From a virus (lineage: Duplodnaviria; Heunggongvirae; Uroviricota; Caudoviricetes), in IMG/VR virus record IMGVR_UViG_2660238190_000006: a stretch of DNA of 11,635 nt. One strand, 5' to 3'. The translations under genes were made by a program, and so were the position numbers. Under the pieces are notes generated by a model. It did not search any database. It was not told the origin of the DNA and saw only the letters and a program-made list of their open reading frames with translations. Shown here in pieces: positions 1 to 11,635 of this stretch. Every line of letters starts with the position of its first letter. The stretch's first letter is position 1.

Positions 1-1218
1 ATGAACAAACTGAGCGATACCTTGCTAAGGAAACTTCATGGTAAGCCAGCGGAGAAAAACACGTTTTATAGTGATGGCGGAAACCTGAGCGTGAAATATT
101 TAACATCAGGGAAATTGACCTGGTATTTCACATACAGGGCCGGAACGGGAAGGGAGACACGACCCGAACGCATTAAGCTGGGAAGTTATCCTGATCTGAG
201 CCTGAAAGCAGCCAGGGAAAAAGCCGCACAGTGTCGCACATGGCTGGCTGAGGGGAAAAATCCACGTCATGAGATGAATTACACCGTACAGGAAGCGTTA
301 AAGCCCGTAACGGTTGGCGATGCGCTCACCTACTGGCTTGAGTATTACGTAAAGGAAAACCGCGTGGATTATATCGCCCTGAAAAGGCGACTTAATAATC
401 ACGTAATACAGCAGATTGGTGCTATGCCGCTGGATAAATGCGAGCTACGGCACTGGCTGGCCTGTTTTGACCAGGTGGCAAAGCGAACGCCTGTTACTGC
501 CGGATTCGTGCTACAGGCGTGCAAACAGGCGCTTAAGTTCTGCCGTAGGCGGCGCTATGCAATCAGCAACGTTCTGGACGATCTGAACGTGGCGGACGTT
601 GGGAAAAAACCGGATATAAGCGAACGTGTCTTAAGTAACAAAGAACTTGGCGAATTATTGCAGGCACTGGACAAAAAAATATTTTCCCCTTACTACGTCG
701 CGTTAATCCGCCTCCTGATTGTCTTCGGAGCCAGGACGGTAGAACTGAGGCTATCGGAGATCGGGGAGTGGGATTTTACGGAAATGCTATGGACCGTTCC
801 GAAGGAGCACAGCAAAACGAAGGTCGCAATATTCCGGCCCATACCGGAAGCGATCCTGCCGTTCGTCACGCAGCTGGTGGAGCAGAACAGGCACACGGGC
901 TTATTGCTGGGGGAAGTGAAACAGGAGGCCAGCGTATCGCAGTATGGAAGATTAGCGCACAGGAGGCTTAATCATCCTCACTGGTCACTGCATGACATCC
1001 GGCGCACCTTTACAACCATGCTGAACGATTTAGGCGTTGATCCGCATGTCGTGGAGCAGCTTACAGGTCATCAGATGCCAGGAATTCAGCGAGTTTATAA
1101 TCATTCCCGTTATCTGGATGCTAAACGCAATGCGCTGGATATGTGGATGGAGCGGTTAGGGATACTGGCGGGAACACATGAAAACGTAACCACGCTACCA
1201 GTAGCCAGAAGAAAATAA
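1..1218 (+). CDS. int: Tyrosine site-specific integrase, P4-like
   Basis: 405-aa ORF starting at base 1. N-terminus (MNKLSDTLLRKLHGKPAEKNTFYSDGGNLSVKY...WYFTYR) resembles the arm-binding domain of P4-type integrases. C-terminal catalytic signature HDIRRTF...GHQ...RVYNHSRY fits the R..H..R..Y tyrosine recombinase motif. Confidence 0.9.
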   Translation: MNKLSDTLLRKLHGKPAEKNTFYSDGGNLSVKYLTSGKLTWYFTYRAGTGRETRPERIKLGSYPDLSLKAAREKAAQCRTWLAEGKNPRHEMNYTVQEALKPVTVGDALTYWLEYYVKENRVDYIALKRRLNNHVIQQIGAMPLDKCELRHWLACFDQVAKRTPVTAGFVLQACKQALKFCRRRRYAISNVLDDLNVADVGKKPDISERVLSNKELGELLQALDKKIFSPYYVALIRLLIVFGARTVELRLSEIGEWDFTEMLWTVPKEHSKTKVAIFRPIPEAILPFVTQLVEQNRHTGLLLGEVKQEASVSQYGRLAHRRLNHPHWSLHDIRRTFTTMLNDLGVDPHVVEQLTGHQMPGIQRVYNHSRYLDAKRNALDMWMERLGILAGTHENVTTLPVARRK

Positions 1219-1260
1219 TTTTTTTCGTGTTTTTTCAGTATGCGCATACTGGATATGCGA

Positions 1261-1320
1261 ACAGATACAACATGCAACAATGAGCAACAATGAGCAACAA
1301 TGCGGAACAACTACGAACAA
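1261..1320. repeat. Six tandem 10-bp-phased repeats ending in AACAA (two exact TGAGCAACAA units); candidate Int/AlpA (excisionase-like) binding array
   Basis: Seen: acagatacaa / catgcaacaa / tgagcaacaa / tgagcaacaa / tgcggaacaa / ctacgaacaa with strict 10-bp register, in the int-alpA intergenic region. Function is inferred. Confidence 0.6.
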
Positions 1321-1602
1321 GAGACGAAAAAGTGTACGGATTTATAAGTAGCTGATTTTTAATGTGTTACTGGTTTTTTATACACTAGCGAATCACTCTT
1401 TAAATAGCGAGAAAAAAGGCATGAAACAATATTTTATGCCTTTGTATTAACATGAATTTAAATGATTTTATCCTGATTATTCCTGTTTCTGTAAACCATA
1501 CGACCTCAACATTTGCCAACTCTGAATCATCCTGACACAATCAGACACATCCCAACGCAATAGAACACGAAATAACTCTTTAAGAAACGAAAGGGGGCAA
1601 TA

Positions 1603-1791
1603 GTGTTAAGCACTGATCGGTTTATACGTGAAAAAGAATGCGAAAAGCTAACAGGCCTTAGCCGCTCATGCCGCTACCGCCTGGAAAAGGCCGGACAATT
1701 CCCATCACGTCGTAAACTTGGCGGTCGTTCCGTTGGCTGGTCTTTATCCGAGGTTCTGGCCTGGAAGGATAGCTGCAAGGCAGTTCATTAA
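1603..1791 (+). CDS. alpA: AlpA-family (Xis/MerR-like HTH) transcriptional regulator / excisionase-like protein
   Basis: 62-aa ORF with GTG start preceded by AAAGGGGG. Sequence ...KECEKLTGLSRSCRYRLEKAGQFPSRRKLGGRSVGWSLSEVLAWK... matches the AlpA pattern (tG.sr...Y.l...G.FP...lg.rsvgW...ev..W). Typical position immediately downstream of int. Confidence 0.8.
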   Translation: MLSTDRFIREKECEKLTGLSRSCRYRLEKAGQFPSRRKLGGRSVGWSLSEVLAWKDSCKAVH

Positions 1792-1937
1792 TCACGCTGG
1801 CGGCACACAGCCGCCACACATCAATCATCTGAACACAGAGCTATAACCATGAAGATTGAATATACGCCAGAACGTGGGCGGGGATTCGTTCGCCCTGGTG
1901 AGACTGGAAAACCACAAAATTGGGGTTTTTCAGGCAT

Positions 1938-1970
1938 AAAAAAAGCGGCCCCGAAATGGAGCCGCCTTTC
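1938..1970 (-). terminator. Rho-independent terminator between convergent alpA and the minus-strand genes (strongest in minus orientation)
   Basis: Seen: A7-GCGGCC-loop-GCCGCC-TTTC on + strand, so on the minus strand a GC stem is followed by a T7 run. Lies about 95 bp downstream of the minus-strand ORF stop at 2061. Confidence 0.5.
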
Positions 1971-2060
1971 TGAACAGATAACACGCTGCGCCGTTTGTGT
2001 GTGTGATCCCAAACATAAGCACGGGGATGATAGCCGCTATCAGGCTGGTGGGCAATGCAA

Positions 2061-2249
2061 TCAGTCTGGTTCAGTTCGTTGCCATACCTGCAATGAGCGC
2101 TTTTCCCTGTACTCTTTAAGGAATTGCTCAAGGGCAAAAGCACATGGCGCGAATCTTTCTGATTCATGCTCTATCTTTCTGCGCCGTCTTTTCCGTGCCG
2201 GTGATAATGTTTTGGTCAATTCTTTATCGGTCATTGTGTTGTCCTGCAT
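2061..2249 (-). CDS. Small basic hypothetical protein (62 aa; alternative start at 2234 with AGGA RBS)
   Basis: ORF with Arg/Lys-rich stretch ARKRRRRKIEHE. In the same reading frame as the upstream RHH ORF, separated only by a TAA and 14 sense codons. Followed by the 1938-1970 terminator. No family recognised. Confidence 0.4.
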   Translation of the reverse strand: MQDNTMTDKELTKTLSPARKRRRRKIEHESERFAPCAFALEQFLKEYREKRSLQVWQRTEPD

Positions 2250-2291
2250 AGCAATGCGCCGTAATACCTCACACCACGGCGCTGATAGTTT

Positions 2292-2483
2292 TTATCCTTT
2301 GGGTTCTATACCGCGCCGCTTTAGTTCAGTACGCCCCAACTCTTTAAGCCAGTTGGCTAGGCTTATGCCGTCGCTCTGTGCTTCTTTATCGAATTGCTCT
2401 TTTAGCTCTGGAGAAATTCGCATTCTGAATTGTGGGGATTGCCCGTCCCCTTTAGGGCTTTTATCGCGTTTGATTGTTGACAA
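2292..2483 (-). CDS. Ribbon-helix-helix (CopG/Arc-like) DNA-binding protein, antitoxin-like
   Basis: 63-aa ORF with TTG start preceded by GGTGA. Segment FRMRISPELKEQFDKEAQSDGISLANWLKELG fits a beta-strand/helix/helix RHH fold pattern. Call is inferred from pattern only. Confidence 0.5.
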   Translation of the reverse strand: MSTIKRDKSPKGDGQSPQFRMRISPELKEQFDKEAQSDGISLANWLKELGRTELKRRGIEPKG

Positions 2484-2617
2484 GTGGTCACCTATTGAAT
2501 TAGCCTTTCTATTGTTAGGTGGTCACCTTAACACAAGAGCACTTAAAAAAGCAAAGCCCCGCAAGTGTCATTACCACTCGCAGGGCTTCTAACCAACAAC
2601 GTAAACTAGGAGCCGTT

Positions 2618-2815
2618 ATGGTTGCTGTAAATCATATACCACACCTTGTACACACACAAACGGCCTTTGTGTGGCGTTTTCTGGCACTGAGTGCCGGAGA
2701 ATCTCAAATCATCCACGTAACCGCCTGGACGGAACGCGAAGCGCGTAGCCGTTGCCCGTCCGGTTGTGTTGCTGTATTCGCCGCCCGTATTCGTCAGGAG
2801 GTGCGCCATGATTAA
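2618..2815 (+). CDS. Icd-like host cell division inhibitor family small protein (tentative)
   Basis: 65-aa ORF from ATG 2618 with strong RBS AGGAG 5 nt upstream. Sequence MVAVNHIPHLVHTQTAFVWRFLALSAGESQIIHVTAWTEREARSRCPSGCVAVFAARIRQEV resembles, from memory, the Icd-like proteins annotated in P4-like prophages. The 2519 start of the tracked ORF was rejected. Confidence 0.55.
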   Translation: MVAVNHIPHLVHTQTAFVWRFLALSAGESQIIHVTAWTEREARSRCPSGCVAVFAARIRQEVRHD

Positions 2816-3020
2816 TCTGTCACTTACTGACCTTAACCGCATTCAGTTTCGTGAGAAATTCACAGGGCAGCTACTGGTCAATGTGGATAAAGGTCGCGTG
2901 GTGTGTAATTACCACTTACCAGATGAAGCAATTGTCGCCACAAGGGAATCATTACAGGAAATCACAAAACGTGCCGGAATGATTAACACGAATATTCAGG
3001 GGATGCTTTATGCACAATAA
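2808..3020 (+). CDS. Hypothetical protein (70 aa)
   Basis: ATG 2808 overlaps the upstream stop (8-nt overlap) with RBS AGGAGG 7 nt upstream; translationally coupled chain. No family recognised. Confidence 0.6.
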   Translation: MINLSLTDLNRIQFREKFTGQLLVNVDKGRVVCNYHLPDEAIVATRESLQEITKRAGMINTNIQGMLYAQ

Positions 3021-3474
3021 AACCACACCGGACGCAGCCGCCGAAGCCATCAAAACGCTGATGCACGCGCTGATTGATATTTCTGTTATCGCGGACAGGG
3101 CACATAAGCACGCCACCAGCGAAACAGAATATGCCGGTGCTTTCGTTCCTCACTCACTGGCTGTCATGCAATTTAGTGCTGATACGGCGCTGAATGAGGC
3201 CAAAGCTATCCTGATTGCTGATTGTGAAAATGGGGGGGTTATGCGTGATGATCGTTTTAATTCCCTGAAACAGGAATTTACCGGCGTTCCTGATGATGCG
3301 GCTGATGCGCTTTCGTCAATGCCAGAACTTATTAGAGCGGCTTTTTTCTTACTTTCCACGAGAGAATATAAATCAACGGGGCTTGATGTACTGAATATCG
3401 CCGCCGATTATGCGGAATATGTGGCAGAGGCGCGTTATAGAAGAAAATTTCCTGAGGATGTAAGCCATGCGTGA
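3010..3474 (+). CDS. Hypothetical protein (154 aa)
   Basis: ATG overlaps the upstream gene end; RBS CAGGGGA upstream. Alanine-rich, predicted helical. No family recognised. Confidence 0.65.
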   Translation: MHNKTTPDAAAEAIKTLMHALIDISVIADRAHKHATSETEYAGAFVPHSLAVMQFSADTALNEAKAILIADCENGGVMRDDRFNSLKQEFTGVPDDAADALSSMPELIRAAFFLLSTREYKSTGLDVLNIAADYAEYVAEARYRRKFPEDVSHA

Positions 3475-3700
3475 TATTTACCACCAAACAATAGACCGCG
3501 CATTTCTTGCACTTTCTCACAGTGAAAACATGCTGGAAATATTGCGCATATGGCTTGAAACACTTGGCGACAATGAACGCGACAAACAAAAATCAAGAAT
3601 TGCCACGGCATTAATAACGCTTCTTGAGCCTGTAATAATGGAACTGCAAGAAATAGATCTATTGCACGACAGATATAAAGAACAGCACACCGGAGAATAA
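3467..3700 (+). CDS. Hypothetical protein (77 aa)
   Basis: ATG 3467 overlaps the upstream stop (ATGCGTGA); RBS GAGGA 8 nt upstream. No family recognised. Confidence 0.6.
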   Translation: MRDIYHQTIDRAFLALSHSENMLEILRIWLETLGDNERDKQKSRIATALITLLEPVIMELQEIDLLHDRYKEQHTGE

Positions 3701-3705
3701 AAATA

Positions 3706-4005
3706 ATGAAACTTAAATATTCTGGCTTAACTGCCAGTGGCAACACTCACCCTAAATTTACGCGCGGTGATATTTACCGCGACCAGTACGGCGGCACGGT
3801 AATGATTAAGGGCGTGGAAGAACGGCGCGTAACCTACCGCCGTGAAGGTTACGAATATGATTGCGTGATGCCTGTTTATCAGTTCCGGCGTGATTTTTCT
3901 CTGGTACAGACCGCGCCGCATAACGTGCCCACCAGCAACGCCAGGGCACGGGCAAACATCCAGAAGCTGAAAACCATGGTTAACGGATTCAGGGGCAAGA
4001 AATGA
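3706..4005 (+). CDS. Hypothetical protein (99 aa)
   Basis: RBS GGAGA about 10 nt upstream; stop overlaps the replicase start (ATGA). No family recognised. Confidence 0.6.
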   Translation: MKLKYSGLTASGNTHPKFTRGDIYRDQYGGTVMIKGVEERRVTYRREGYEYDCVMPVYQFRRDFSLVQTAPHNVPTSNARARANIQKLKTMVNGFRGKK

Positions 4006-5402
4006 AAAGCGCACCGAACTTAAAAAAACAGCCTTACGACAAGATGACCGAAGTCATCATTTTTGCGGGTAGTGATGCGTGGGCACATGCGAAACAGTGG
4101 CAGGAACAGGACGGGCGACTGGCTGGCGATAATGTGCCTCCCATTGTGCTGGCTGATGATCAACTGGATGAACTGGCAGACCTGAGAATCATCGACGAGG
4201 GGCGCTATTGTGTCCGGCTGTACAAGGCAGGCCACATCAGGCCATCAAATATTAATGCCATTGCGCACAAGCTGGCGGCGGCGGGCGTAACTGATGCGAA
4301 TTATTACCCCGAAGGGATGCACAGCCATATGCGGGAGAACTGGCGCGAATACCTGGAACGGGTGCGCGGGAAAGAGCCGGCGGAAGAAAAAAACCACCAG
4401 CGAAAAACCACGCTACCGATGAGCGTTGGATCTACCGGATACGACACGCAACTGGATTACGTGGTTAAGGGGATTATTCCGGCGGTATCGCTATGCAGCA
4501 TATACGGGGCTAGCGGGTCCTATAAATCATTCCTTGCCGGATCGTGGGCGTGCCATGTTGCCACTGGTCGCCAGTGGGGAGGCCGCAGGGTTGCACATGG
4601 TGCGGTTCTCTATGTGGTTGGTGAAGGCGGTATAGGTGTTCCGCGTCGTGTAAAAGCCTGGGAGGTTGTGCACGATGAGCAGGTGAAAAATCTGTATCTG
4701 GTAAACCGCCCCATCTTTCCGGCTGCCCCGCTTGATGTTGATGAAATGGTTATCGCTGCCCGTCAGGTGGAGCGGGAAACGGGTAAACCTGTACGCATGA
4801 TTATTCTGGATACGCTGGCGCGTTGCTTTGGTGGGAATGATGAAAATGATTCCCGTGATATGGGGGCGTTTATCCGTGGTTGTGACGAACTGAAACGACG
4901 CACAGGGGCCACGGTGCTGGTGGTTCACCATTCCGGCAAGGATGAGACGAAAGGCGCGCGCGGTTCCAGTGCATTTCGTGCTTCGCTGGATGCTGAATAC
5001 CGGATACGCAGGGAGGACGCAGGAAGCGAAGCGCTGGTTATCTCATGCACCAAAATGAAGGACGCGGAGGAACTCAAAGAAGCCGCATATGACTTACGCG
5101 TGGTGGAGCTTTTTACCGACGCTGACGGTGAATTAATCACGTCGCTGGTGGTGGTGGATGATCCGCGCCCTCCTGTTGAACTGGAGCGCATCGAGGAGGC
5201 AGGGAACAAGACGGAAAACCATACCGCGCTATGGGGGTGCATCCGTTCACGCACACAGAACGGCGACAAGTGCACGATCCAGATGTTACGTGATGACATG
5301 AAAAAGCTGGGGTATGAAATGAAAAACTTCCGGCGCTGGCTGTACAAGCTGGAAAAAGATGGGGTTATTCGTATCGATGGGGATGATGTAGCGCCGCTAT
5401 AA
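4002..5402 (+). CDS. Replication protein: RecA/DnaB-like P-loop ATPase (RepA/AAA_25-type helicase) with an N-terminal domain of unknown function
   Basis: 466-aa ORF. Walker A GASGSYKS (in IYGASGSYKSFLAG), Walker B-like hydrophobic-D stretch MIILDTLARCFGG, and HHSGKD (sensor-like) typical of RepA/DnaB-family replicative ATPases found in satellite pri-rep modules. Iteron cluster lies immediately downstream. Confidence 0.8.
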   Translation: MKSAPNLKKQPYDKMTEVIIFAGSDAWAHAKQWQEQDGRLAGDNVPPIVLADDQLDELADLRIIDEGRYCVRLYKAGHIRPSNINAIAHKLAAAGVTDANYYPEGMHSHMRENWREYLERVRGKEPAEEKNHQRKTTLPMSVGSTGYDTQLDYVVKGIIPAVSLCSIYGASGSYKSFLAGSWACHVATGRQWGGRRVAHGAVLYVVGEGGIGVPRRVKAWEVVHDEQVKNLYLVNRPIFPAAPLDVDEMVIAARQVERETGKPVRMIILDTLARCFGGNDENDSRDMGAFIRGCDELKRRTGATVLVVHHSGKDETKGARGSSAFRASLDAEYRIRREDAGSEALVISCTKMKDAEELKEAAYDLRVVELFTDADGELITSLVVVDDPRPPVELERIEEAGNKTENHTALWGCIRSRTQNGDKCTIQMLRDDMKKLGYEMKNFRRWLYKLEKDGVIRIDGDDVAPL

Positions 5403-5593
5403 AAGTGAGGAGCAAAAGCGAGGGGGATAGAAAGAGGGCCAAAATTAGCCCGCTCCCCCTCACTTTTCGACCTGTATACATCCTCAAAAGTGAGGGGTAA
5501 AAAAATACTTATGAAACACACACATAGAAAAACCGAAAATCCCAACTGCGACGAAGTGAGACGCTTGAAAAAGTGAGGCGAAAAAGTGAGAGG
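5401..5593. promoter_or_regulatory. Iteron cluster (AAAGTGAGG repeats, both orientations) with an AT-rich spacer; putative replication origin and/or operator
   Basis: Seen: AAAAGTGAGG at 5401-5410, inverted copy at 5455-5467, AAAAGTGAGGGG 5486-5497, GAAGTGAGAC 5553-5562, AAAAAGTGAGG 5568-5578, AAAAAGTGAGAGG 5581-5593, plus degenerate AAAGCGAGGGGGA 5415-5427. An AT-rich tract at 5497-5545 lies between copies. Position directly 3' of the replicase gene is typical for satellite/PICI origins (inference). Confidence 0.55.
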
Positions 5594-5602
5594 TTGCGAG
5601 AA

Positions 5603-5854
5603 ATGACCCAAAAACGCAGAGACAGAACAGAGCCAAAATATAAAGCGTTAGACATGACTGAGCACACCTTAAAGGTGGCAATCAGAACGATAGACCGCCA
5701 CACGCGGGAAGGATACGCGAAGGAACATCCCGACCTGATAAGCGCATTCATGACCACGGCGGCGGCAAACTTTGCCACGCTGACAGAACGGGAGATTGCC
5801 GAAGCGGAACAGGTAACAACCATCAACGTTAAAACCGGAGAGTTGGAATCATGA
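5603..5854 (+). CDS. Hypothetical protein (83 aa)
   Basis: ATG 5603 with RBS GAGAGG (inside the last iteron); the tracked ORF's upstream start at 5573 lies within the iterons and was rejected. No family recognised. Confidence 0.55.
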   Translation: MTQKRRDRTEPKYKALDMTEHTLKVAIRTIDRHTREGYAKEHPDLISAFMTTAAANFATLTEREIAEAEQVTTINVKTGELES

Positions 5855-6156
5855 GCGAACCAAAATTTGGTGAAAAACTTTACAAGCACAACGGACGGAT
5901 CACGATTCAGCAAATAAGCGCAGCTACACCAGGCTGGTGGGTTGAAACAGACGAAGGATCCTCACCCGTGGCATCATGGGCGCTTTGTGTGCTTAGTTAC
6001 CCTGACCGCGATGTGTATCAGGATATTCTGCCTGTGATATCCACTGATAAAGGCATGAAGCCCGTAGACATCAAAAACATGGGTTTTCAGTGCGTAATGC
6101 TCACTGAAAAAATGATGGAAGAGATGAAAAAGAACAACGCCGGATCGCTTCACTGA
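5851..6156 (+). CDS. Hypothetical protein (101 aa)
   Basis: ATGA overlap with the upstream gene; RBS GGAGAG 9 nt upstream. No family recognised. Confidence 0.6.
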   Translation: MSEPKFGEKLYKHNGRITIQQISAATPGWWVETDEGSSPVASWALCVLSYPDRDVYQDILPVISTDKGMKPVDIKNMGFQCVMLTEKMMEEMKKNNAGSLH

Positions 6157-6165
6157 GGTGGCAAT

Positions 6166-6576
6166 ATGACAGCACAAATTGCAGCTTACGGGCGGCTGGT
6201 GGACGACCCGCAGGTAAAACAGACCAGCAAGGGTACACCGATGACGCTGGCGCGTATGGCGGTATCGCTGCCATGCAGCCAGGCACAGGATGGACAGGCG
6301 ACGTTATGGCTATCGGTCATCGCATTTGGTAAGCAGGCCGACTTCCTGGCTAAACATCAAAAAGGCGACGTTGCCAGCGTATCCGGCACGATGCAGGTCA
6401 GCCAGTGGACCGGACAGAACGGGGAAACGCGGCAGGGTTATCAGGTTATTGCAGACAGCGTAATCAGTGCCCGTGCGGCACGTCCTGGTGGGAGCCGACG
6501 CAAGACCACAGGCACACAGGGTAATCAGCCACCAGCGGGAGGCGATGACCCTTACGGTGATGATATTCCGTTCTGA
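6166..6576 (+). CDS. ssb: Single-stranded DNA-binding protein (SSB-like)
   Basis: 136-aa ORF. OB-fold-like N-terminal region, Gly/Gln/Pro-rich linker and C-terminal acidic tip DDPYGDDIPF, matching the conserved DDDIPF tail of bacterial SSB. RBS GAGGTGG upstream. Confidence 0.75.
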   Translation: MTAQIAAYGRLVDDPQVKQTSKGTPMTLARMAVSLPCSQAQDGQATLWLSVIAFGKQADFLAKHQKGDVASVSGTMQVSQWTGQNGETRQGYQVIADSVISARAARPGGSRRKTTGTQGNQPPAGGDDPYGDDIPF

Positions 6577-6588
6577 GGGGTGGGGACG

Positions 6589-6861
6589 ATGGTACATGAC
6601 CGCATAGCGGAAGAACTGGAGGCGAAAGGCTTTTACCGGAGAGCGTCGGCGCGATGGGGTGAAGTCATGCAACTGGTGGAGACAGACAAGGAACGGCATC
6701 ACATCACGATGCGACGGCTGGAATGTTCCAGGAAGGCACAGAGGCCACCGGAGCCGCCGGATAATTACGGAGACCTGAAAAAGGCGGTCGATCGCACTTA
6801 TGCCGAAATGGGTATGGATGGTGCTGGTGATGAAATATGGCGAAATTACCAGGACAGATAA
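6589..6861 (+). CDS. PerC-family-like transcriptional activator (tentative)
   Basis: About 90-aa ORF. AEELEAKGFYRRASARWGEVM resembles the PerC/Pch N-terminal signature (LE..G.WRRAA..W) as remembered. ATG 6589 with GAGGGG RBS is preferred over GTG 6580. Followed by a terminator. Confidence 0.5.
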   Translation: MVHDRIAEELEAKGFYRRASARWGEVMQLVETDKERHHITMRRLECSRKAQRPPEPPDNYGDLKKAVDRTYAEMGMDGAGDEIWRNYQDR

Positions 6862-6867
6862 TCACAC

Positions 6868-6890
6868 AGCCGGAGCAATCCGGCTTTTTG
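6868..6890 (+). terminator. Rho-independent terminator after the PerC-like gene
   Basis: Seen: AGCCGGA-GCAA-TCCGGCT stem-loop followed by TTTTT. Confidence 0.65.
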
Positions 6891-6918
6891 TCATGTTTTG
6901 TAAATTATTTGTTCGTGG

Positions 6919-6933
6919 TTGTTCCACGTTGTT
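6919..6933. repeat. 15-mer TTGTTCCACGTTGTT (copy 1) within three tandem TTGTTC-containing decamers
   Basis: Seen: exact 15-mer shared with 11370-11384. Local context tatTTGTTCgtggTTGTTCcacgTTGTTCgctg. Confidence 0.5.
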
Positions 6934-7111
6934 CGCTGACCGGATCGGCATATTTTACCCGAACTGAATCATGATTATTCTCGCCCGTGGTGCCAGGACG
7001 CTGGGGCCACTTTCCCGCCTGTTAATGTGCCCGCCAATATTCATTACCAGGCGGGAAAACGATCGGTGCGATTGCTGATTTCCTTATGAAAAACGGTTGA
7101 GTGTTTGCCGC

Positions 7112-7148
7112 GTCCTGGAGTTCCTTACTTAACTTCAGGACTTTTTTT
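7112..7148 (+). terminator. Strong intrinsic terminator/attenuator hairpin ending in T7, directly abutting the capsid start codon and sequestering its RBS
   Basis: Seen: 11-bp stem GTCCTGGAGTT (7112-7122) pairing with AACTTCAGGAC (7131-7141), one G-U pair, 8-nt loop, then TTTTTTT (7142-7148), then ATG at 7149. The AGGA RBS (7137-7140) is inside the 3' arm. Confidence 0.6.
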
Positions 7149-8306
7149 ATGCCGAGAATAATCGAATTACGCCAGCAGAAAACCGCCATTAAAAATCAGA
7201 TGCGCGACATGCTGGAGAACGCGGAAAAAGAAAACCGCAGCCTTAACGATGCTGAGGGCGCAAAATTTGACGAATTACGCGCTAAAGCTGAATCCCTCGA
7301 TAAAGACATCTCCCGCCTTGAGGCCGTTGCTGACGAAGAGCGCAGTAAACCAGGCAAAAACAGCCAGACCACTGACCCCGCCGAACTACGTCACTACATT
7401 CTGACAGGTGAAACCCGCGCATTGAGTACAGGCGTTCCCGCTGATGGTGGTTATACCGTTATCCCCGAACTGAACACCGAAATCATGCGAATGCTGACGG
7501 ATGAATCCACCATGCGCCGCATCTGTACCGTGAAGAAAATCAGCAGCAACGAGTTTAAGCAGCTTGTTTCCGCTGGCGGTGCGACCGTTAACCACGGTGA
7601 AGAGGGTAAGGCACGCGAACAGACCAGCACCCCGCAGATTAACGAGGTGAGCATTAAGCTGTATCCGGTCTATGCGTACCCGCGCACCACGCAGGAAATC
7701 GTGGATTTTTCCGATGTGGACATCCTTTCATGGCTGACGGGCGAGATTGGCGACACCTTCACGGAAACCGAAGAAAGCGATCTGGTTGTGGGCGACGGTG
7801 ACAAAAAAGCAAAAGGCTTTTTATCCGTACCCCGTGCAGAGAAGAACGACAAAGAGCGTGATTTTGGTACGTTGCAGGTAATTAAACCTTCCGAATCTCT
7901 GGCGTGGACATCTGCGGACCCGCTGATCGACCTGAAATTTGCATTACGTAAAAAATACCGCAAAAACGCGGTCTGGGTGGTTAACTCCACGACGGCGGCA
8001 AAACTCCAGAAGGTGAAGAACGCGAACGGTGATTACATCTGGCGTGACCGTTTACAGGCGGGTGATCCTGATACGTTGCTGGGCCTTCCGGTCGAATATC
8101 TGGAGTTTATGCCGGATAACGTTATTGCCCTGGGTGACTTCAAACGCGGTTACTACATTGTTGATCACGAAACAGGTGTTCGCACCAGACCGGACAACCT
8201 CACAGAGCCGGGCTTCATCAAAATTTTCGCGCAGAAATATTTAGGCGGTGGCGTGGTGGATTCGAACGCGATCAAGATTCTGGAACTGCCACAGGACGAC
8301 GATTAA
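7149..8306 (+). CDS. Major capsid protein, HK97 fold, with N-terminal coiled-coil scaffold (delta-like) domain
   Basis: N-terminal coiled coil RIIELRQQKTAIKNQMRDMLENAEKENRSLNDAEGAKFDELRAKAESLDKDISRLEAV matches the HK97-family MCP delta-domain pattern. GDGDKKAKGFLS fits the conserved G.G...p.Gil region. Start 7149 chosen over GTG 7101; start is uncertain. Confidence 0.85.
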   Translation: MPRIIELRQQKTAIKNQMRDMLENAEKENRSLNDAEGAKFDELRAKAESLDKDISRLEAVADEERSKPGKNSQTTDPAELRHYILTGETRALSTGVPADGGYTVIPELNTEIMRMLTDESTMRRICTVKKISSNEFKQLVSAGGATVNHGEEGKAREQTSTPQINEVSIKLYPVYAYPRTTQEIVDFSDVDILSWLTGEIGDTFTETEESDLVVGDGDKKAKGFLSVPRAEKNDKERDFGTLQVIKPSESLAWTSADPLIDLKFALRKKYRKNAVWVVNSTTAAKLQKVKNANGDYIWRDRLQAGDPDTLLGLPVEYLEFMPDNVIALGDFKRGYYIVDHETGVRTRPDNLTEPGFIKIFAQKYLGGGVVDSNAIKILELPQDDD

Positions 8307-8316
8307 CAGCATACAG

Positions 8317-8345
8317 AAGGGGCTTAAAAGCCCCTTTAGTGTTTT
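8317..8345 (+). terminator. Hairpin (partial terminator/attenuator) between capsid and protease genes
   Basis: Seen: AAGGGGC-loop-GCCCCTT followed by T-rich TAGTGTTTTA. Could tune capsid versus protease expression (inference). Confidence 0.4.
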
Positions 8346-8918
8346 ATGGGTGAAAAAATTATGAAGAGTATGGAAATCCGGTCATCGGAAATCACCACCA
8401 GCGGAGCCGGTACGCTGACGGGCTACATTGTTCGCTGGGATAAGCTTTCAGAACTGTTATGGGGTGAGTTTTACGAAAAATTCCAGCGGGGGGCGTTTAC
8501 TGAATGGCTTGCGGCGGGTAATGACGTTCGCGGCCTGTATGAGCATGACCACAGCATGTTACTGGGGCGCACCCGTTCCGGCACGCTGAAACTGGAAGAG
8601 GACGAAACAGGGTTACGCTTTGAACTGACCCCACCGGATACCAGTACAGGGCGCGACGTTATCGAACTGGTTAAACGAGGTGATATATCCGGCATGAGCT
8701 TTGGCTTTCGTTCCCGTAAGGATGTATGGGATACCACAACAGATCCATGCGTGCGCACCGTGCTGGTGGCGGAACTGTACGAAATTACCGTTACATCCGT
8801 ACCGGCTTACCCTGATTCCGACGTGGAGCTGGCCCGCCGTTCCCTGTATGAGCAGCACCCCGAAAAAATGCCGCGTGCGGATAATCGCCGCTGGTGGGCG
8901 GATTTAGCGGGGGTGTGA
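8346..8918 (+). CDS. Prohead maturation protease, HK97 family (S78/U35-like)
   Basis: Motifs GYIVRWDKLSELLWGEFYEKFQRGAF, LYEHDHSMLLGRT, GLRFELTPPDTSTGRDVIELVKRGDISGMSFGF and YEITVTSVPAYPDS match the HK97 prohead protease family pattern. Start may instead be ATG 8361 or 8370. Confidence 0.85.
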   Translation: MGEKIMKSMEIRSSEITTSGAGTLTGYIVRWDKLSELLWGEFYEKFQRGAFTEWLAAGNDVRGLYEHDHSMLLGRTRSGTLKLEEDETGLRFELTPPDTSTGRDVIELVKRGDISGMSFGFRSRKDVWDTTTDPCVRTVLVAELYEITVTSVPAYPDSDVELARRSLYEQHPEKMPRADNRRWWADLAGV

Positions 8919-10438
8919 TATGTGGCCTTTCCAGGGTGTGCCCGCACGTAAAAGGGCCGATGCGTGGCAGACCCATTGAGCTGGAGCCGTGGCAGCAGTT
9001 CGCCTTTGCGTGCATCCTCGGCTTTAAGGTTAAGGCCACCGGACGGCGCAAATACACGAGCGCCTTTATCGAAGTGCCGCGCAAAAATGCGAAATCCACG
9101 ACCGCCGCGATTCTGGCTAACTGGTTTCTGATTATGGAGAACGGTCAGCAGGATATCTACACCGCAGCGGTGAGCCGTGACCAGGCGCGGATCGTCTTTG
9201 ATGATGCGCGTCAGATGTGCCTTTTATCCCGACCGTTACGCAGGCGGGTGAATATTCAGGCGCATAAGGTGATGCACCCGAAAAGCAACAGCCTGTTAAA
9301 GCCGCTGGCAGCAAAAGCGGCAACCATCGAGGGAACAAACCCCAGCCTTTCCATCGTGGACGAATACCACTTGCACCCCGATAACGGCGTTTATTCCGCG
9401 CTTGAGCTGGGGATGGGCGCACGCCCCGAAGGGCTGTTATTTGCTATTACCACATCAGGCAGTAACGTCGTTTCAGCCTGTAAGCAGCACTATGATTATT
9501 GCTGCCAGATCCTGGACGGCGAAGAGGTCAACGATTCAATTTTTGTACTGATTTACGAACTGGACGACGAAAACGAGGTTGATGATCCGGCGATGTGGAT
9601 AAAGGCGAACCCTAATATTGATGTTTCCGTGGATCGTGAAAAACTGGCCTCAACCATCCAGAAAGCGCGGGGTATTCCGTCGCAGTGGGTGGAGATGATG
9701 ACAAAGCGATTTAATATCTGGTGCCAGGGGGCTACCCCGTGGATGGGTAACGGCGCATGGGCTGAGTGTGCCGGAACGTTCACGGAGGAAGATTTACACG
9801 GCCAGGAGTGTTACGCGGGGCTGGACTTATCATCAACCAGCGATATTTCCAGCGTGTGCTATGCCTTTCCGGTCGGTAAAACCATTATGCTGGTTTCCCG
9901 TCACTATCTGCCGGAATTTCAGCTACAGAACCCCGCCAATAAAAACCGCGCCATCTATCGTCAGTGGGCTAAAGCAGGCTGGATACGCACAACGCCTGGC
10001 GACTGCATTGATTACGACCGGATCAGAGATGACATCATGCAGGACGCGGAGAAATTTAATATCAGGCTGGTGGGCTTTGATACGTGGAACGCCACGCATC
10101 TCAGAACGCAATTACAGGGGGCAGGTTTTGAGGTGGAGCCGTTCCCGCAAACCTACCTCAGATTCAGTCCGGCGGCGAAATCGTTCGAAGTTTTTGTTAA
10201 CCGCAGGGTGATTGTGCATCGTGGCGATCCGGTGTTGTCCTGGTCGATGAGTAACGTCGTGATGCAGAGTGACGCGAACGCCAATATCAAGCCGAACAAG
10301 AAAAAATCACCGAACAAGATAGACCCGAGCGTGGCGGCGCTGATGGCGTTTGGTACATTCCAGGCAGAGCATGAGGATTTTGCTTTTGATATAAGCGACA
10401 GCCACCGCCAGAAACTGGAAGAATTTAGCGGGGTGTAA
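8894..10438 (+). CDS. Terminase large subunit (Terminase_1 / COG4626-type), with a short N-terminus
   Basis: Motifs recognised: LEPWQQF; P-loop EVPRKNAKSTTAA; AAVSRDQARIVF; Walker B SIVDEYHLH; ITTSG; WIKANPNIDVSV; GLDLSSTSD; C-terminal KPNKKKSPNKIDPSVAALMAF. Start ambiguous (GTG 8894 overlapping the protease end, GTG 8936, or ATG 8960). Confidence 0.85.
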   Translation: MGGFSGGVICGLSRVCPHVKGPMRGRPIELEPWQQFAFACILGFKVKATGRRKYTSAFIEVPRKNAKSTTAAILANWFLIMENGQQDIYTAAVSRDQARIVFDDARQMCLLSRPLRRRVNIQAHKVMHPKSNSLLKPLAAKAATIEGTNPSLSIVDEYHLHPDNGVYSALELGMGARPEGLLFAITTSGSNVVSACKQHYDYCCQILDGEEVNDSIFVLIYELDDENEVDDPAMWIKANPNIDVSVDREKLASTIQKARGIPSQWVEMMTKRFNIWCQGATPWMGNGAWAECAGTFTEEDLHGQECYAGLDLSSTSDISSVCYAFPVGKTIMLVSRHYLPEFQLQNPANKNRAIYRQWAKAGWIRTTPGDCIDYDRIRDDIMQDAEKFNIRLVGFDTWNATHLRTQLQGAGFEVEPFPQTYLRFSPAAKSFEVFVNRRVIVHRGDPVLSWSMSNVVMQSDANANIKPNKKKSPNKIDPSVAALMAFGTFQAEHEDFAFDISDSHRQKLEEFSGV

Positions 10439-10451
10439 TGAGGTCAGCAGC

Positions 10452-10733
10452 ATGACAGAAGCCGAAATAACGGGATTAATCCGCCGCGTTGCCGGAATCA
10501 GCCAGCAGGCTGACGAACAGGCCACGCAGCCGGACAGCGTGACAGCCGAAAACTATGCGCGTGTTGTTGCTGAGGTGATGCGCCGTGATGGTATAGAACT
10601 TAATGGCGTGGATATGCGCAACATACGAACCAGAGCTCTTGAGTTGCTGGCCTACCGTCGCCGCGTGGAGATGTATCGGGAGAAGGAGAAAATAACGTAC
10701 CACTGGAAGAAGCCGGAGCGGTTGCGGCGGTAA
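10452..10733 (+). CDS. Hypothetical protein (93 aa) downstream of TerL
   Basis: ATG with RBS GAGGT 8 nt upstream, 13 nt after the TerL stop. Possibly a head-completion/connector-like or packaging accessory protein, but no family recognised. Confidence 0.55.
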   Translation: MTEAEITGLIRRVAGISQQADEQATQPDSVTAENYARVVAEVMRRDGIELNGVDMRNIRTRALELLAYRRRVEMYREKEKITYHWKKPERLRR

Positions 10734-11026
10734 CTGGTTGATATTCCCGACGGACCAAAAATGGGTGGCTACATCCCTCGCTTCTGAGGACTGTTAACAA
10801 GCTGCCTGAAAGACAGTCACAAACTACGAAATTTTCGCAGTTTAATTAATGATCAGCTTAATCGCTAACCCGCTGATATTTTCGGAAACCTCAATTTGAG
10901 GAAGTCGGCGCGGTAACTCGCTGAACTTTAAGCAAAGTGCAAAATTGCGCTTGCTGAATAATCATTATGATTACGCAGATGATTAAGGAATGACCGAAGG
11001 CGGAAATTCGCCTGTGGTTAATGGGG

Positions 11027-11170
11027 GAGTTGCAGATCTGCAACTCGACCATGAAACTACGGAAACTACCCGTAGTTTGGGTAGTAAGAGTAACACCCAG
11101 ATTTTGGGTCTTACTCGTGATACCCAAATTTGGGGTATCAGTGGCAACCATAACGACTTTCGTTACGGTT
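11027..11170. other. Array of five consecutive perfect or near-perfect palindromes/hairpins in non-coding DNA (candidate packaging site, operator array or structured RNA)
   Basis: Seen: 20-bp perfect palindrome GAGTTGCAGATCTGCAACTC (11027-11046); hairpin AAACTACGG/CCGTAGTTT (11054-11078); ACCCAGATTTTGGGT (11095-11109) with flanking GAGTAA/TTACTC; GATACCCAAATTTGGGGTATC (11119-11139); AACCATAACG/CGTTACGGTT (11146-11170). Confidence 0.5.
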
Positions 11171-11369
11171 GATGCTTTTACCCCATTGGGGGAAAGGTAT
11201 TACGATAATCATAACACCTACCGAACAGGTAAAGCCCACCAGCCTGATTAACGTTTAACCGGAAAAAAATTCCGGTAGGTGGGGATCCCCATATCGACAT
11301 TAACGCCCCTCATGAATTGGTGCGCTTCCCCCTGGAAAGATGATCCGCCTGTATATTTCTTGTGTCTAT

Positions 11370-11384
11370 TTGTTCCACGTTGTT
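11370..11384. repeat. 15-mer TTGTTCCACGTTGTT (copy 2)
   Basis: Seen: exact match to 6919-6933; shared TATTTGTTC prefix as well. Confidence 0.5.
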
Positions 11385-11470
11385 TCATACAGTGCACCGA
11401 ACGGTGTAGTCACTGGTGTAGTCATTTTGCGATTTTTGGCACTTTTTGCGGTGAAAATTATTTAATTAAA

Positions 11471-11635
11471 TCAACGTGTTATGTGAAATAAGTTATATAT
11501 AACAGCAATAAATAATGCGAGAATAAACGGCACGATGATCTCGGCGGCAAAACGGATACCGCAGAGAATAATGACCAGCATTCCCAACATAATGACGATT
11601 TTTAGGCCATTGAGCGTGATGATCGGCTTTGCCAT
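11471..11635 (-). pseudogene. tqsA: 5' fragment (54 codons) of an AI-2E-family transporter gene (TqsA/YdgG-like), apparently truncated at the island junction
   Basis: Minus-strand ORF starting at the last base of the window: [54 protein letters not shown]. The N-terminal 45 or so residues match my recollection of E. coli TqsA; the ORF then diverges and stops. It is shorter than 60 aa, so absent from the supplied track. Confidence 0.45.

Follow-up and report, generated by a model that had tools for sequence, protein, structure and literature searches.

The right end of the stretch analysed here, 11,635 nt of viral DNA from IMG/VR record IMGVR_UViG_2660238190_000006 (hereafter the window), raises the question of whether a satellite island has come to lie inside the coding region of a host transporter gene and, if so, what becomes of that gene. 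An earlier note had described a minus-strand ORF at this end as the beginning of an AI-2E-family transporter of the tqsA type, and had proposed an insertion near the 5' end of the gene. Our reading is that window 11471-11635 is the attR of a PICI integrated site-specifically into a dedicated site in tqsA, with the gene inactivated while the island is resident; we put the probability of this reading at roughly 93%.

Truncated tqsA reading frame at the window end

The terminal 137 nt of the window (11499-11635) matched the annotated 5' end of tqsA in 5,423 of the 5,426 complete genomes of E. coli, most of them with 100% identity (E ~3e-64), and showed 0 differences from nt 1-137 of BL21 tqsA; the ORF thus does start as an AI-2E-family transporter, at 100% nucleotide identity. 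The match to TqsA ended at residue 46, in agreement with the divergence after about 45 residues that had been claimed, and the 54-aa ORF then ran through eight island-derived codons unrelated to TqsA (YNLFHITR) to a TGA stop (11471-11473) at codon 55. Divergence from TqsA sets in at codon 47, residue 46 being retained only because ATA and ATT both encode Ile. Short natural homologues had been named as grounds for abandoning this reading; intact TqsA is 344 aa long, so that such brevity is not natural to the family. Measured against a full-length AI-2E transporter (344 aa; H1-H4, TMH5-6, HP1-2), the window ORF retained residues 1-46 only, and a Pfam scan of ORF 11471-11635 returned no match. 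Among public assemblies, ED1a included, 1,687 blocks are on record with exactly this 54-aa chimera. In the cryo-EM structure of TqsA (PMC9475539), the horizontal helix H2 comprises Ala31-Trp57 and H1 forms the main cytoplasmic contact of the pentamer; with the boundaries taken from that structure, the island break falls in mid-H2 and cuts H1 off from the rest of TqsA.

Attachment site and junctions

The window starts at the integrase ATG and holds neither attL nor the tqsA 3' fragment, and the left junction was therefore read from relatives and from Logan contigs that carry the unique deletion junction of the window. BL21 served as the empty site and relatives such as PCN033 and 14EC001 as occupied genomes. 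The reconstruction of the empty site and att core that had been suggested as a check succeeded: a 9-bp core, ATAACAGCA (window 11499-11507), was common to attB (gttaagaATAACAGCAataaat), attL (gttaagaATAACAGCAttttatc), and attR (gttatatATAACAGCAataaat), and on the coding strand it corresponds to tqsA codons 44-46 of 344. Island-specific sequence stopped at 11498. This core, lying within tqsA and derived independently, equals the published core of the EcCI042 group. One Logan contig, which matched window 7879-11635 at 100% identity and window 1-2032 at 99.95%, had the same attL, with the tqsA 3' fragment and pntB immediately to the left of int.

Alignment gave a tqsA-type attP of the form TTATATAT-AACAGCA-TTTTATCA. 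In the attP of related islands located at phoQ, TGATAAAA-GGACATA-TTTTATCA, a perfect 8-bp inverted repeat surrounds 7 bp, and by analogy with it we infer that strand exchange in the tqsA type would involve a 7-bp overlap, AACAGCA, flanked by AT-rich half-sites; at attR the overlap would lie between TTATATAT and the host half-site ATAAATAA (Table 1). The palindrome TTATATATAA was found at 11493-11502, where it had been placed, and spans the island/core boundary. We rejected it as a functional element of its own, because it consists of the AT-rich island half-site TTATATAT entering the first bases of the shared core; the recombinase-core-like dyad is centred on AACAGCA, not on TTATATATAA. The pair of GGTGTAGTCA repeats in the int-distal arm recurred upstream of int in relatives. 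Over the int-proximal attP arm, PGAP calls a 60-aa hypothetical protein (L001 911-1093, minus strand; WP_001332680.1 or WP_001364171.1), with an equivalent in all tqsA-site loci. This 60-aa ORF (WP_001332680.1) lies opposite the int start and shares the frame of tqsA, from which, however, it is cut off by TGA TAA; it is probably a spurious call across the arm-site region.

Table 1. Features of the window, with position, strand, and basis of assignment.
Feature	Positions	Strand	Basis
Tyrosine integrase, tqsA-specific type, 405 aa from ATG	1-1218	+	Pfam Arm-DNA-bind_3, Phage_int_M (weak), Phage_integrase
AlpA-type excisionase/transcriptional regulator	1603-1791	+	Pfam Phage_AlpA 5e-18; PHROG 'excisionase and transcriptional regulator'
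Replication module	3706-5402	+	DUF4222 protein and RepA-like helicase
DUF4222 protein	3706-4005	+	Pfam DUF4222
RepA-like helicase	4002-5402	+	Pfam AAA_25 2.4e-43; annotated in relatives as 'helicase RepA family protein'
SSB	6166-6576	+	Pfam SSB
PerC-family regulator	6580-6861	+	Pfam PerC 3e-43
HK97-type major capsid protein (cf-PICI module)	7101-8306	+	Pfam Phage_capsid 1e-61
Prohead protease (cf-PICI module)	8346-8918	+	Pfam Peptidase_S78 2.5e-48
N-truncated large terminase, TerL residues 50-553 plus 10 upstream codons	8894-10438	+	Pfam TerL_ATPase, TerL_nuclease; blastn mapping
Deletion junction, 7-bp microhomology	8925-8931	.	blastn of window vs L001, L003, L004, L005; L004 12007 joins 15052
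Conserved 93-aa PICI ORF, function not assigned	10452-10733	+	phrog_1561 1.9e-55
Tandem arm-type repeats GGTGTAGTCA(ct)GGTGTAGTCA, int-distal arm; putative Int-binding sites	11403-11424	+	two exact copies
Chimeric 54-codon ORF, TqsA 1-46 + YNLFHITR + stop	11471-11635	-	translation
attR recombination core; half-site/overlap split predicted	11493-11515	.	attB/attL/attR comparison; core equals published one
Putative core-type half-site TTATATAT	11493-11500		
Putative 7-bp overlap AACAGCA	11501-11507		
Putative host half-site ATAAATAA	11508-11515		
tqsA 5' fragment, codons 1-46 (H1 and half of H2), wild-type DNA	11499-11635	-	matches to annotated tqsA; structure paper PMC9475539

Disruption of tqsA in occupied genomes

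That the island lies inside the tqsA coding region near its 5' end, as had been proposed, was confirmed in complete genomes: tqsA is annotated as two pseudogene pieces on either side of the island in PCN033, 14EC001, 042, and ten further genomes. PCN033 matched the last 336 bases of the window at 100%, and in PCN033 and 14EC001 the piece lacking its C-terminus and the piece lacking its N-terminus lay ~15.3-15.6 kb apart, with the integrase adjoining the 3' piece. We also ran the suggested check of whether the island terminus restores the transporter reading frame, and rejected restoration at both ends, given an in-frame TGA TAA at attL, directly upstream of the core and the tqsA 3' piece, and eight foreign codons followed by TGA at attR. 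The earliest conventional in-frame starts in the 3' piece are GTG51 and ATG54, and gene finders call a 291-aa product from Met54; such a product is formally possible, would lack H1 and half of H2, and would be without the native promoter. No AI-2E homologue was found by Pfam among the island ORFs scanned. When the flanks were joined in silico through the core, a 344-aa TqsA resulted with 0-1 aa differences from BL21, and for the Logan contig identical at 100% to window 7879-11635 the rebuilt TqsA equalled that of BL21 with 0 differences.

The tqsA site was uninterrupted at attB in 5,171 of the 5,426 complete E. coli genomes, while 247 contained attL and 246 attR, such that ~247 (4.5%) carry the junction. 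In a few genomes (NZ_CP073976.1, MB20; NZ_CP014583.1, CFSAN004176) tqsA is broken elsewhere, the match ending at ~window 11553 or, for the attB query, at nt 116; an IS element or some other insertion that has nothing to do with the PICI site is the probable cause. The 3' fragment in 12 occupied genomes, which represent 6 haplotypes, contained no stop or frameshift and had 0-2 aa changes as against 10-19 nt changes, and a decay test of both tqsA halves found no lesions in 13 occupied genomes, with nucleotide changes that were mostly synonymous. Unbroken halves of this kind fit both recent insertion and upkeep by selection. The islands at the tqsA site vary in their replication module (RepA helicase or D5-type primase) and in their packaging module, which points to several independent integrations.

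Gene content of the island and the packaging deletion

The window displayed the Gram-negative PICI architecture described by Fillol-Salom et al. 2018, namely int at the left end, AlpA, rightward genes, a replication module, and a size in the ~10-15 kb range. All identified island genes are on the plus strand, and the island measures ~11.7 kb core to core (Table 1). Both int and alpA are intact; the integrase is annotated as 409 aa in relatives, from an upstream GTG. The 93-aa ORF was found in all relatives, EcCI042 and L006 included, and scans of the window ORFs found no tail or lysis domain.

Compared with full-length relatives, ~3.04 kb has been deleted from the window, comprising portal (after its first 4 codons), head-closure, head-tail connector, HNH, a small ORF, TerS, and TerL codons 1-49. 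The full head and packaging module of the EcCIEDL933 family is therefore not present, portal, head-closure, connector, HNH, and TerS having been lost, and this island copy is a degraded cf-PICI derivative rather than a functional member. With the portal-to-TerS genes gone, it probably can no longer package itself. No end-to-end match to the window was found among the 5,426 complete genomes, and the deletion junction, with its truncated-terL ORF, was shared only by Logan short-read contigs, 3 independent ones, each of which leaves out a different internal segment, possibly through an assembly artefact. Two Logan contigs (SRR28735533_115, L031; SRR26857947_190, L032) were 100% identical to the right 3.7-4.0 kb of the window and skipped different internal blocks, window 2033-7878 in L031 and 4439-7661 in L032. 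These gaps may be either further decay of the lineage or short-read assembly collapse over sequence shared with other PICIs.

The non-coding right end contains, at window 11040-11150, three consecutive short inverted repeats (aaactacgg...ccgtagttt, acccagattttgggt, and gatacccaaatttggggtatc). An Rfam scan of the window, these repeats included, returned no family; a promoter and terminator consensus scan of 10400-11635 found sites no more numerous than in shuffles; and over the repeats themselves the consensus scan gave no terminator-like site on the plus strand and one weak site on the minus strand. The repeats could belong to the packaging (cos) region, or they could serve in replication or regulation.

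Two sites, two integrase alleles, and a mosaic island

Relatives of the island in O157:H7, FORC_042, and Shigella flexneri are located between roxA (ycfD) and phoQ, with a core, GGACATATTT, that overlaps the phoQ stop codon. Two other tqsA-site islands have an Int that is 98.3-98.5% identical to that of the window, and for the phoQ-site Int the figure was 89-90%. In the one pair compared residue by residue (window vs FORC_042), 40 of 45 differences fell within residues 1-200, the arm- and core-binding parts. The arm repeats differed as well, being GGTGTAGTCA(C) in the tqsA type and GGTGTAGTTAAT in the phoQ type (GTAGTCAC vs GTAGTTAAT), and this change covaried with the substitutions in Int residues 1-200 between tqsA- and phoQ-type islands; the phoQ-type repeats of the FORC_042 island (L004) lie at 2940-2965 and 17483-17507. 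The int-proximal half of attP (TTTTATCA...) is common to both types. The five islands sampled sorted by site, all three at tqsA having the tqsA-type Int and both at phoQ the other Int. The two types may provide a compact natural case of integrase retargeting. An integrase survey of species-representative genomes returned one locus only, a phoQ-type island in Shigella flexneri, a result that is uninformative on tqsA targeting outside E. coli.

Window 2546-8931 was 99.4% identical to the FORC_042 island at the roxA/phoQ site, while the int region (window 1-2289) was only 90% identical; over aligned segments, window 1-6889 was 94-99% identical to the classical PICI EcCI042 (L030). Judged by these alignments, the island is a mosaic with int/attP as a putative exchangeable module, and the copy in the window reads as an EcCI042-like int, regulation, and replication half joined to a cf-PICI (EcCIEDL933-like) packaging module. 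Int/attP and packaging modules appear to have been swapped between PICI types.

A probable free form of the satellite

The attP junction predicted for excision, GTTATATATAACAGCATTTTATCA, was found in one IMG/VR contig of 11,098 bp whose 119-nt terminal repeat marks it as a circular assembly. This virome/metagenome contig (L006; IMGVR_UViG_3300045988_152974, 1-11098) is a circular EcCI042-like PICI of ~10,979 bp in which the tqsA-type attP is intact; its int is the same, its gene set resembles that of EcCI042, and it appears to be a free or packaged form of the satellite. Because the exact attP sits in a circular contig, the int/attP module evidently exists outside the chromosome and must be able to excise.

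Proposed explanation and alternatives

In the explanation that we favor, the P4-type tyrosine integrase (window 1-1218) presumably binds the tandem GGTGTAGTCA arm repeats on both arms together with the AT-rich core half-sites, and strand exchange would take place within ATAACAGCA, likely across the 7-bp overlap. Integration splits tqsA: its promoter and start codon stay with H1 and half of H2, now in a 54-codon chimeric ORF, and the remaining 298 codons lie ~11.7 kb away to the left of int. With the frame restored at neither junction and no replacement gene on the island, tqsA would be inactive for as long as the island resides there. Excision by Int, aided by AlpA, would rebuild tqsA exactly. 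The junction anatomy, the core, the split, the unrestored frame, the exact in silico rebuilding, the prevalence, and a circular attP form are shown directly; loss of tqsA function and excision in this host are inferred, as are the overlap position and the arm and core binding sites, which are predicted from symmetry and covariation.

The only point in favor of a chance ORF, a naturally short tqsA-like gene, or a deletion remnant is the brevity of the ORF, and we rejected this reading as next to impossible: its first 137 nt are tqsA at 100% identity, the full gene has 344 codons and is uninterrupted in 5,171 genomes, and the missing 3' part lies on the other side of the island wherever that side is visible. 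Hardly more credible is off-target integration by an Int whose real target is the ycfD(roxA)-phoQ intergenic site. It is true that the Int of closely related islands targets GGACATATTT, a sequence overlapping the stop codon of phoQ, that the two Int types agree at 89-90% identity, and that they share the int-proximal attP half; however, the tqsA-site islands possess an attP core of their own (ATAACAGCA, not GGACATATTT), arm repeats of their own, and a distinct Int allele, the five sampled islands sort cleanly by site and Int type, and a free attP of the tqsA type exists.

A further reading, regulated gene integrity, accepts the insertion and takes it for a selected reversible switch, in which the resident island would hold AI-2 export off and helper-triggered, AlpA-dependent excision would turn tqsA on, or the reverse in a subpopulation. 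What speaks for it is a dedicated and precise site with the same junction in ~247 genomes, the presence at tqsA of two PICI types (EcCI042/L006 with a lambda-like capsid and the HK97-type cf-PICI), halves free of lesions in 13 occupied genomes (6 haplotypes among 12), exact in silico restoration by excision, and the candidacy of tqsA in Mageeney et al. 2020 on similar computational grounds. That study looks for target-gene domains that integration breaks and does not restore, in several independent events brought about by integrases of one tight clade, and this is the pattern seen here across different island types, replication modules, and 6 host tqsA haplotypes. Intact halves, however, are equally expected of recent insertions, most of the nucleotide differences probably predating integration; occupancy is only 4.5% of genomes; the copy in the window is decaying through its 3-kb deletion, a poor fit to a maintained switch; and a PICI normally excises when a helper phage is induced and the cell dies, so that there is little scope for a regulatory benefit. 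We therefore consider this reading unlikely, and we doubt in particular that a PICI in tqsA acts as a selected, phage-responsive on/off switch of AI-2 export, with residence keeping AI-2 intracellular and helper-triggered excision restoring export. If it did, a resident satellite would raise lsr expression, biofilm, and motility as in tqsA deletions, and quorum signalling would be coupled to satellite and phage dynamics.

A satellite splits tqsA in about one complete E. coli genome in 22; strain 042, the enteroaggregative reference, is among them, as are ED1a and several STEC lineages. According to Herzberg et al. 2006 (cited in PMC9475539), strains deleted for tqsA contain more AI-2 inside the cell, express lsr more strongly, and show greater motility and biofilm formation. 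The insertion could thus alter how quorum-sensing and biofilm phenotypes of occupied strains are read, and the possibility of a reversible switch is a hypothesis already raised by others.

Comparison with known systems

The elements of dusA-specific integrases are reportedly inserted in the 5' end of the host gene and supply a replacement 5' end, so that dusA stays intact. They resemble the present island in having their target close to the start of a protein-coding gene, in place of a tRNA gene or a 3' end, but differ from it in that the tqsA junctions bear in-frame stops and provide no replacement end.

The tqsA site itself, its core, and the disruption of the gene are already documented, so that the insertion finding is correct and not new. 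Bobay et al. 2013 (PMC3603311) named tqsA among the conserved genes disrupted by integration; Table S1 of Fillol-Salom et al. 2018 (PMC6092414) gives tqsA as att gene and ATAACAGCA as att core for EcCI042 (FN554766.1 1832521-1843554, 11 kb) and EcCIK1516, and places the GGACATATTT core of EcCICFT073 at ycfD-phoQ; and Mageeney et al. 2020 (PMC7192596) listed tqsA as a new candidate for regulated gene integrity (Eco282.16.tqsA, Eco33.11.tqsA, Eco557.15.tqsA). Both published cores are exactly those derived here, and EcCI042 was re-derived at 11,034 bp core to core. The literature searched yielded no phenotype or excision experiment for the tqsA site. The earlier note had called an insertion of this kind unusual, which holds relative to other PICI sites only; as a documented, dedicated PICI site, tqsA is not a novelty. 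What is added here is the prevalence figure, the intactness of both halves, the free attP form, a predicted layout of half-sites and overlap, the covariation of arm sites with Int across tqsA- and phoQ-type islands, and a packaging-defective mosaic copy.

EcCI042 and EcCIK1516 share with the window the att gene tqsA, the core, and the junction sequences, and the EcCI042 Int is identical to that of the window at 401 of 405 aa, which assigns both to the same cognate allele. EcCI042 differs in having a lambda-E-like capsid, a decoration protein, and small packaging genes, whereas the window has an HK97-type capsid, protease, and TerL together with the 3-kb deletion; the chimeric ORF is 48 aa in 042 and 54 aa in the window. 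The EcCIEDL933-type cf-PICIs resemble the window in the gene order and content of the packaging module as annotated in relatives (capsid, protease, portal, head-closure, connector, HNH, TerS, TerL). Unlike the window copy, which is without portal-to-TerS, the O157:H7 and FORC_042 copies reside at roxA (ycfD)-phoQ, where no gene is disrupted because they lie between roxA and phoQ with a core that overlaps the phoQ stop codon. For E. coli, Alqurainy et al. (bioRxiv 10.1101/2022.09.08.507074) count six attB sites of cf-PICIs, of which four also serve classical PICIs.

The elements grouped under regulated gene integrity (PMC7192596) include the comK prophage of Listeria, the skin element in sigK of Bacillus, and the E. 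coli mlrA prophages; excision-dependent reactivation has been shown by experiment for comK and sigK, whereas for tqsA it is predicted in silico. Like them, the tqsA islands are inserted site-specifically inside a conserved host gene that the end of the element does not restore, and precise excision would rebuild the target gene.
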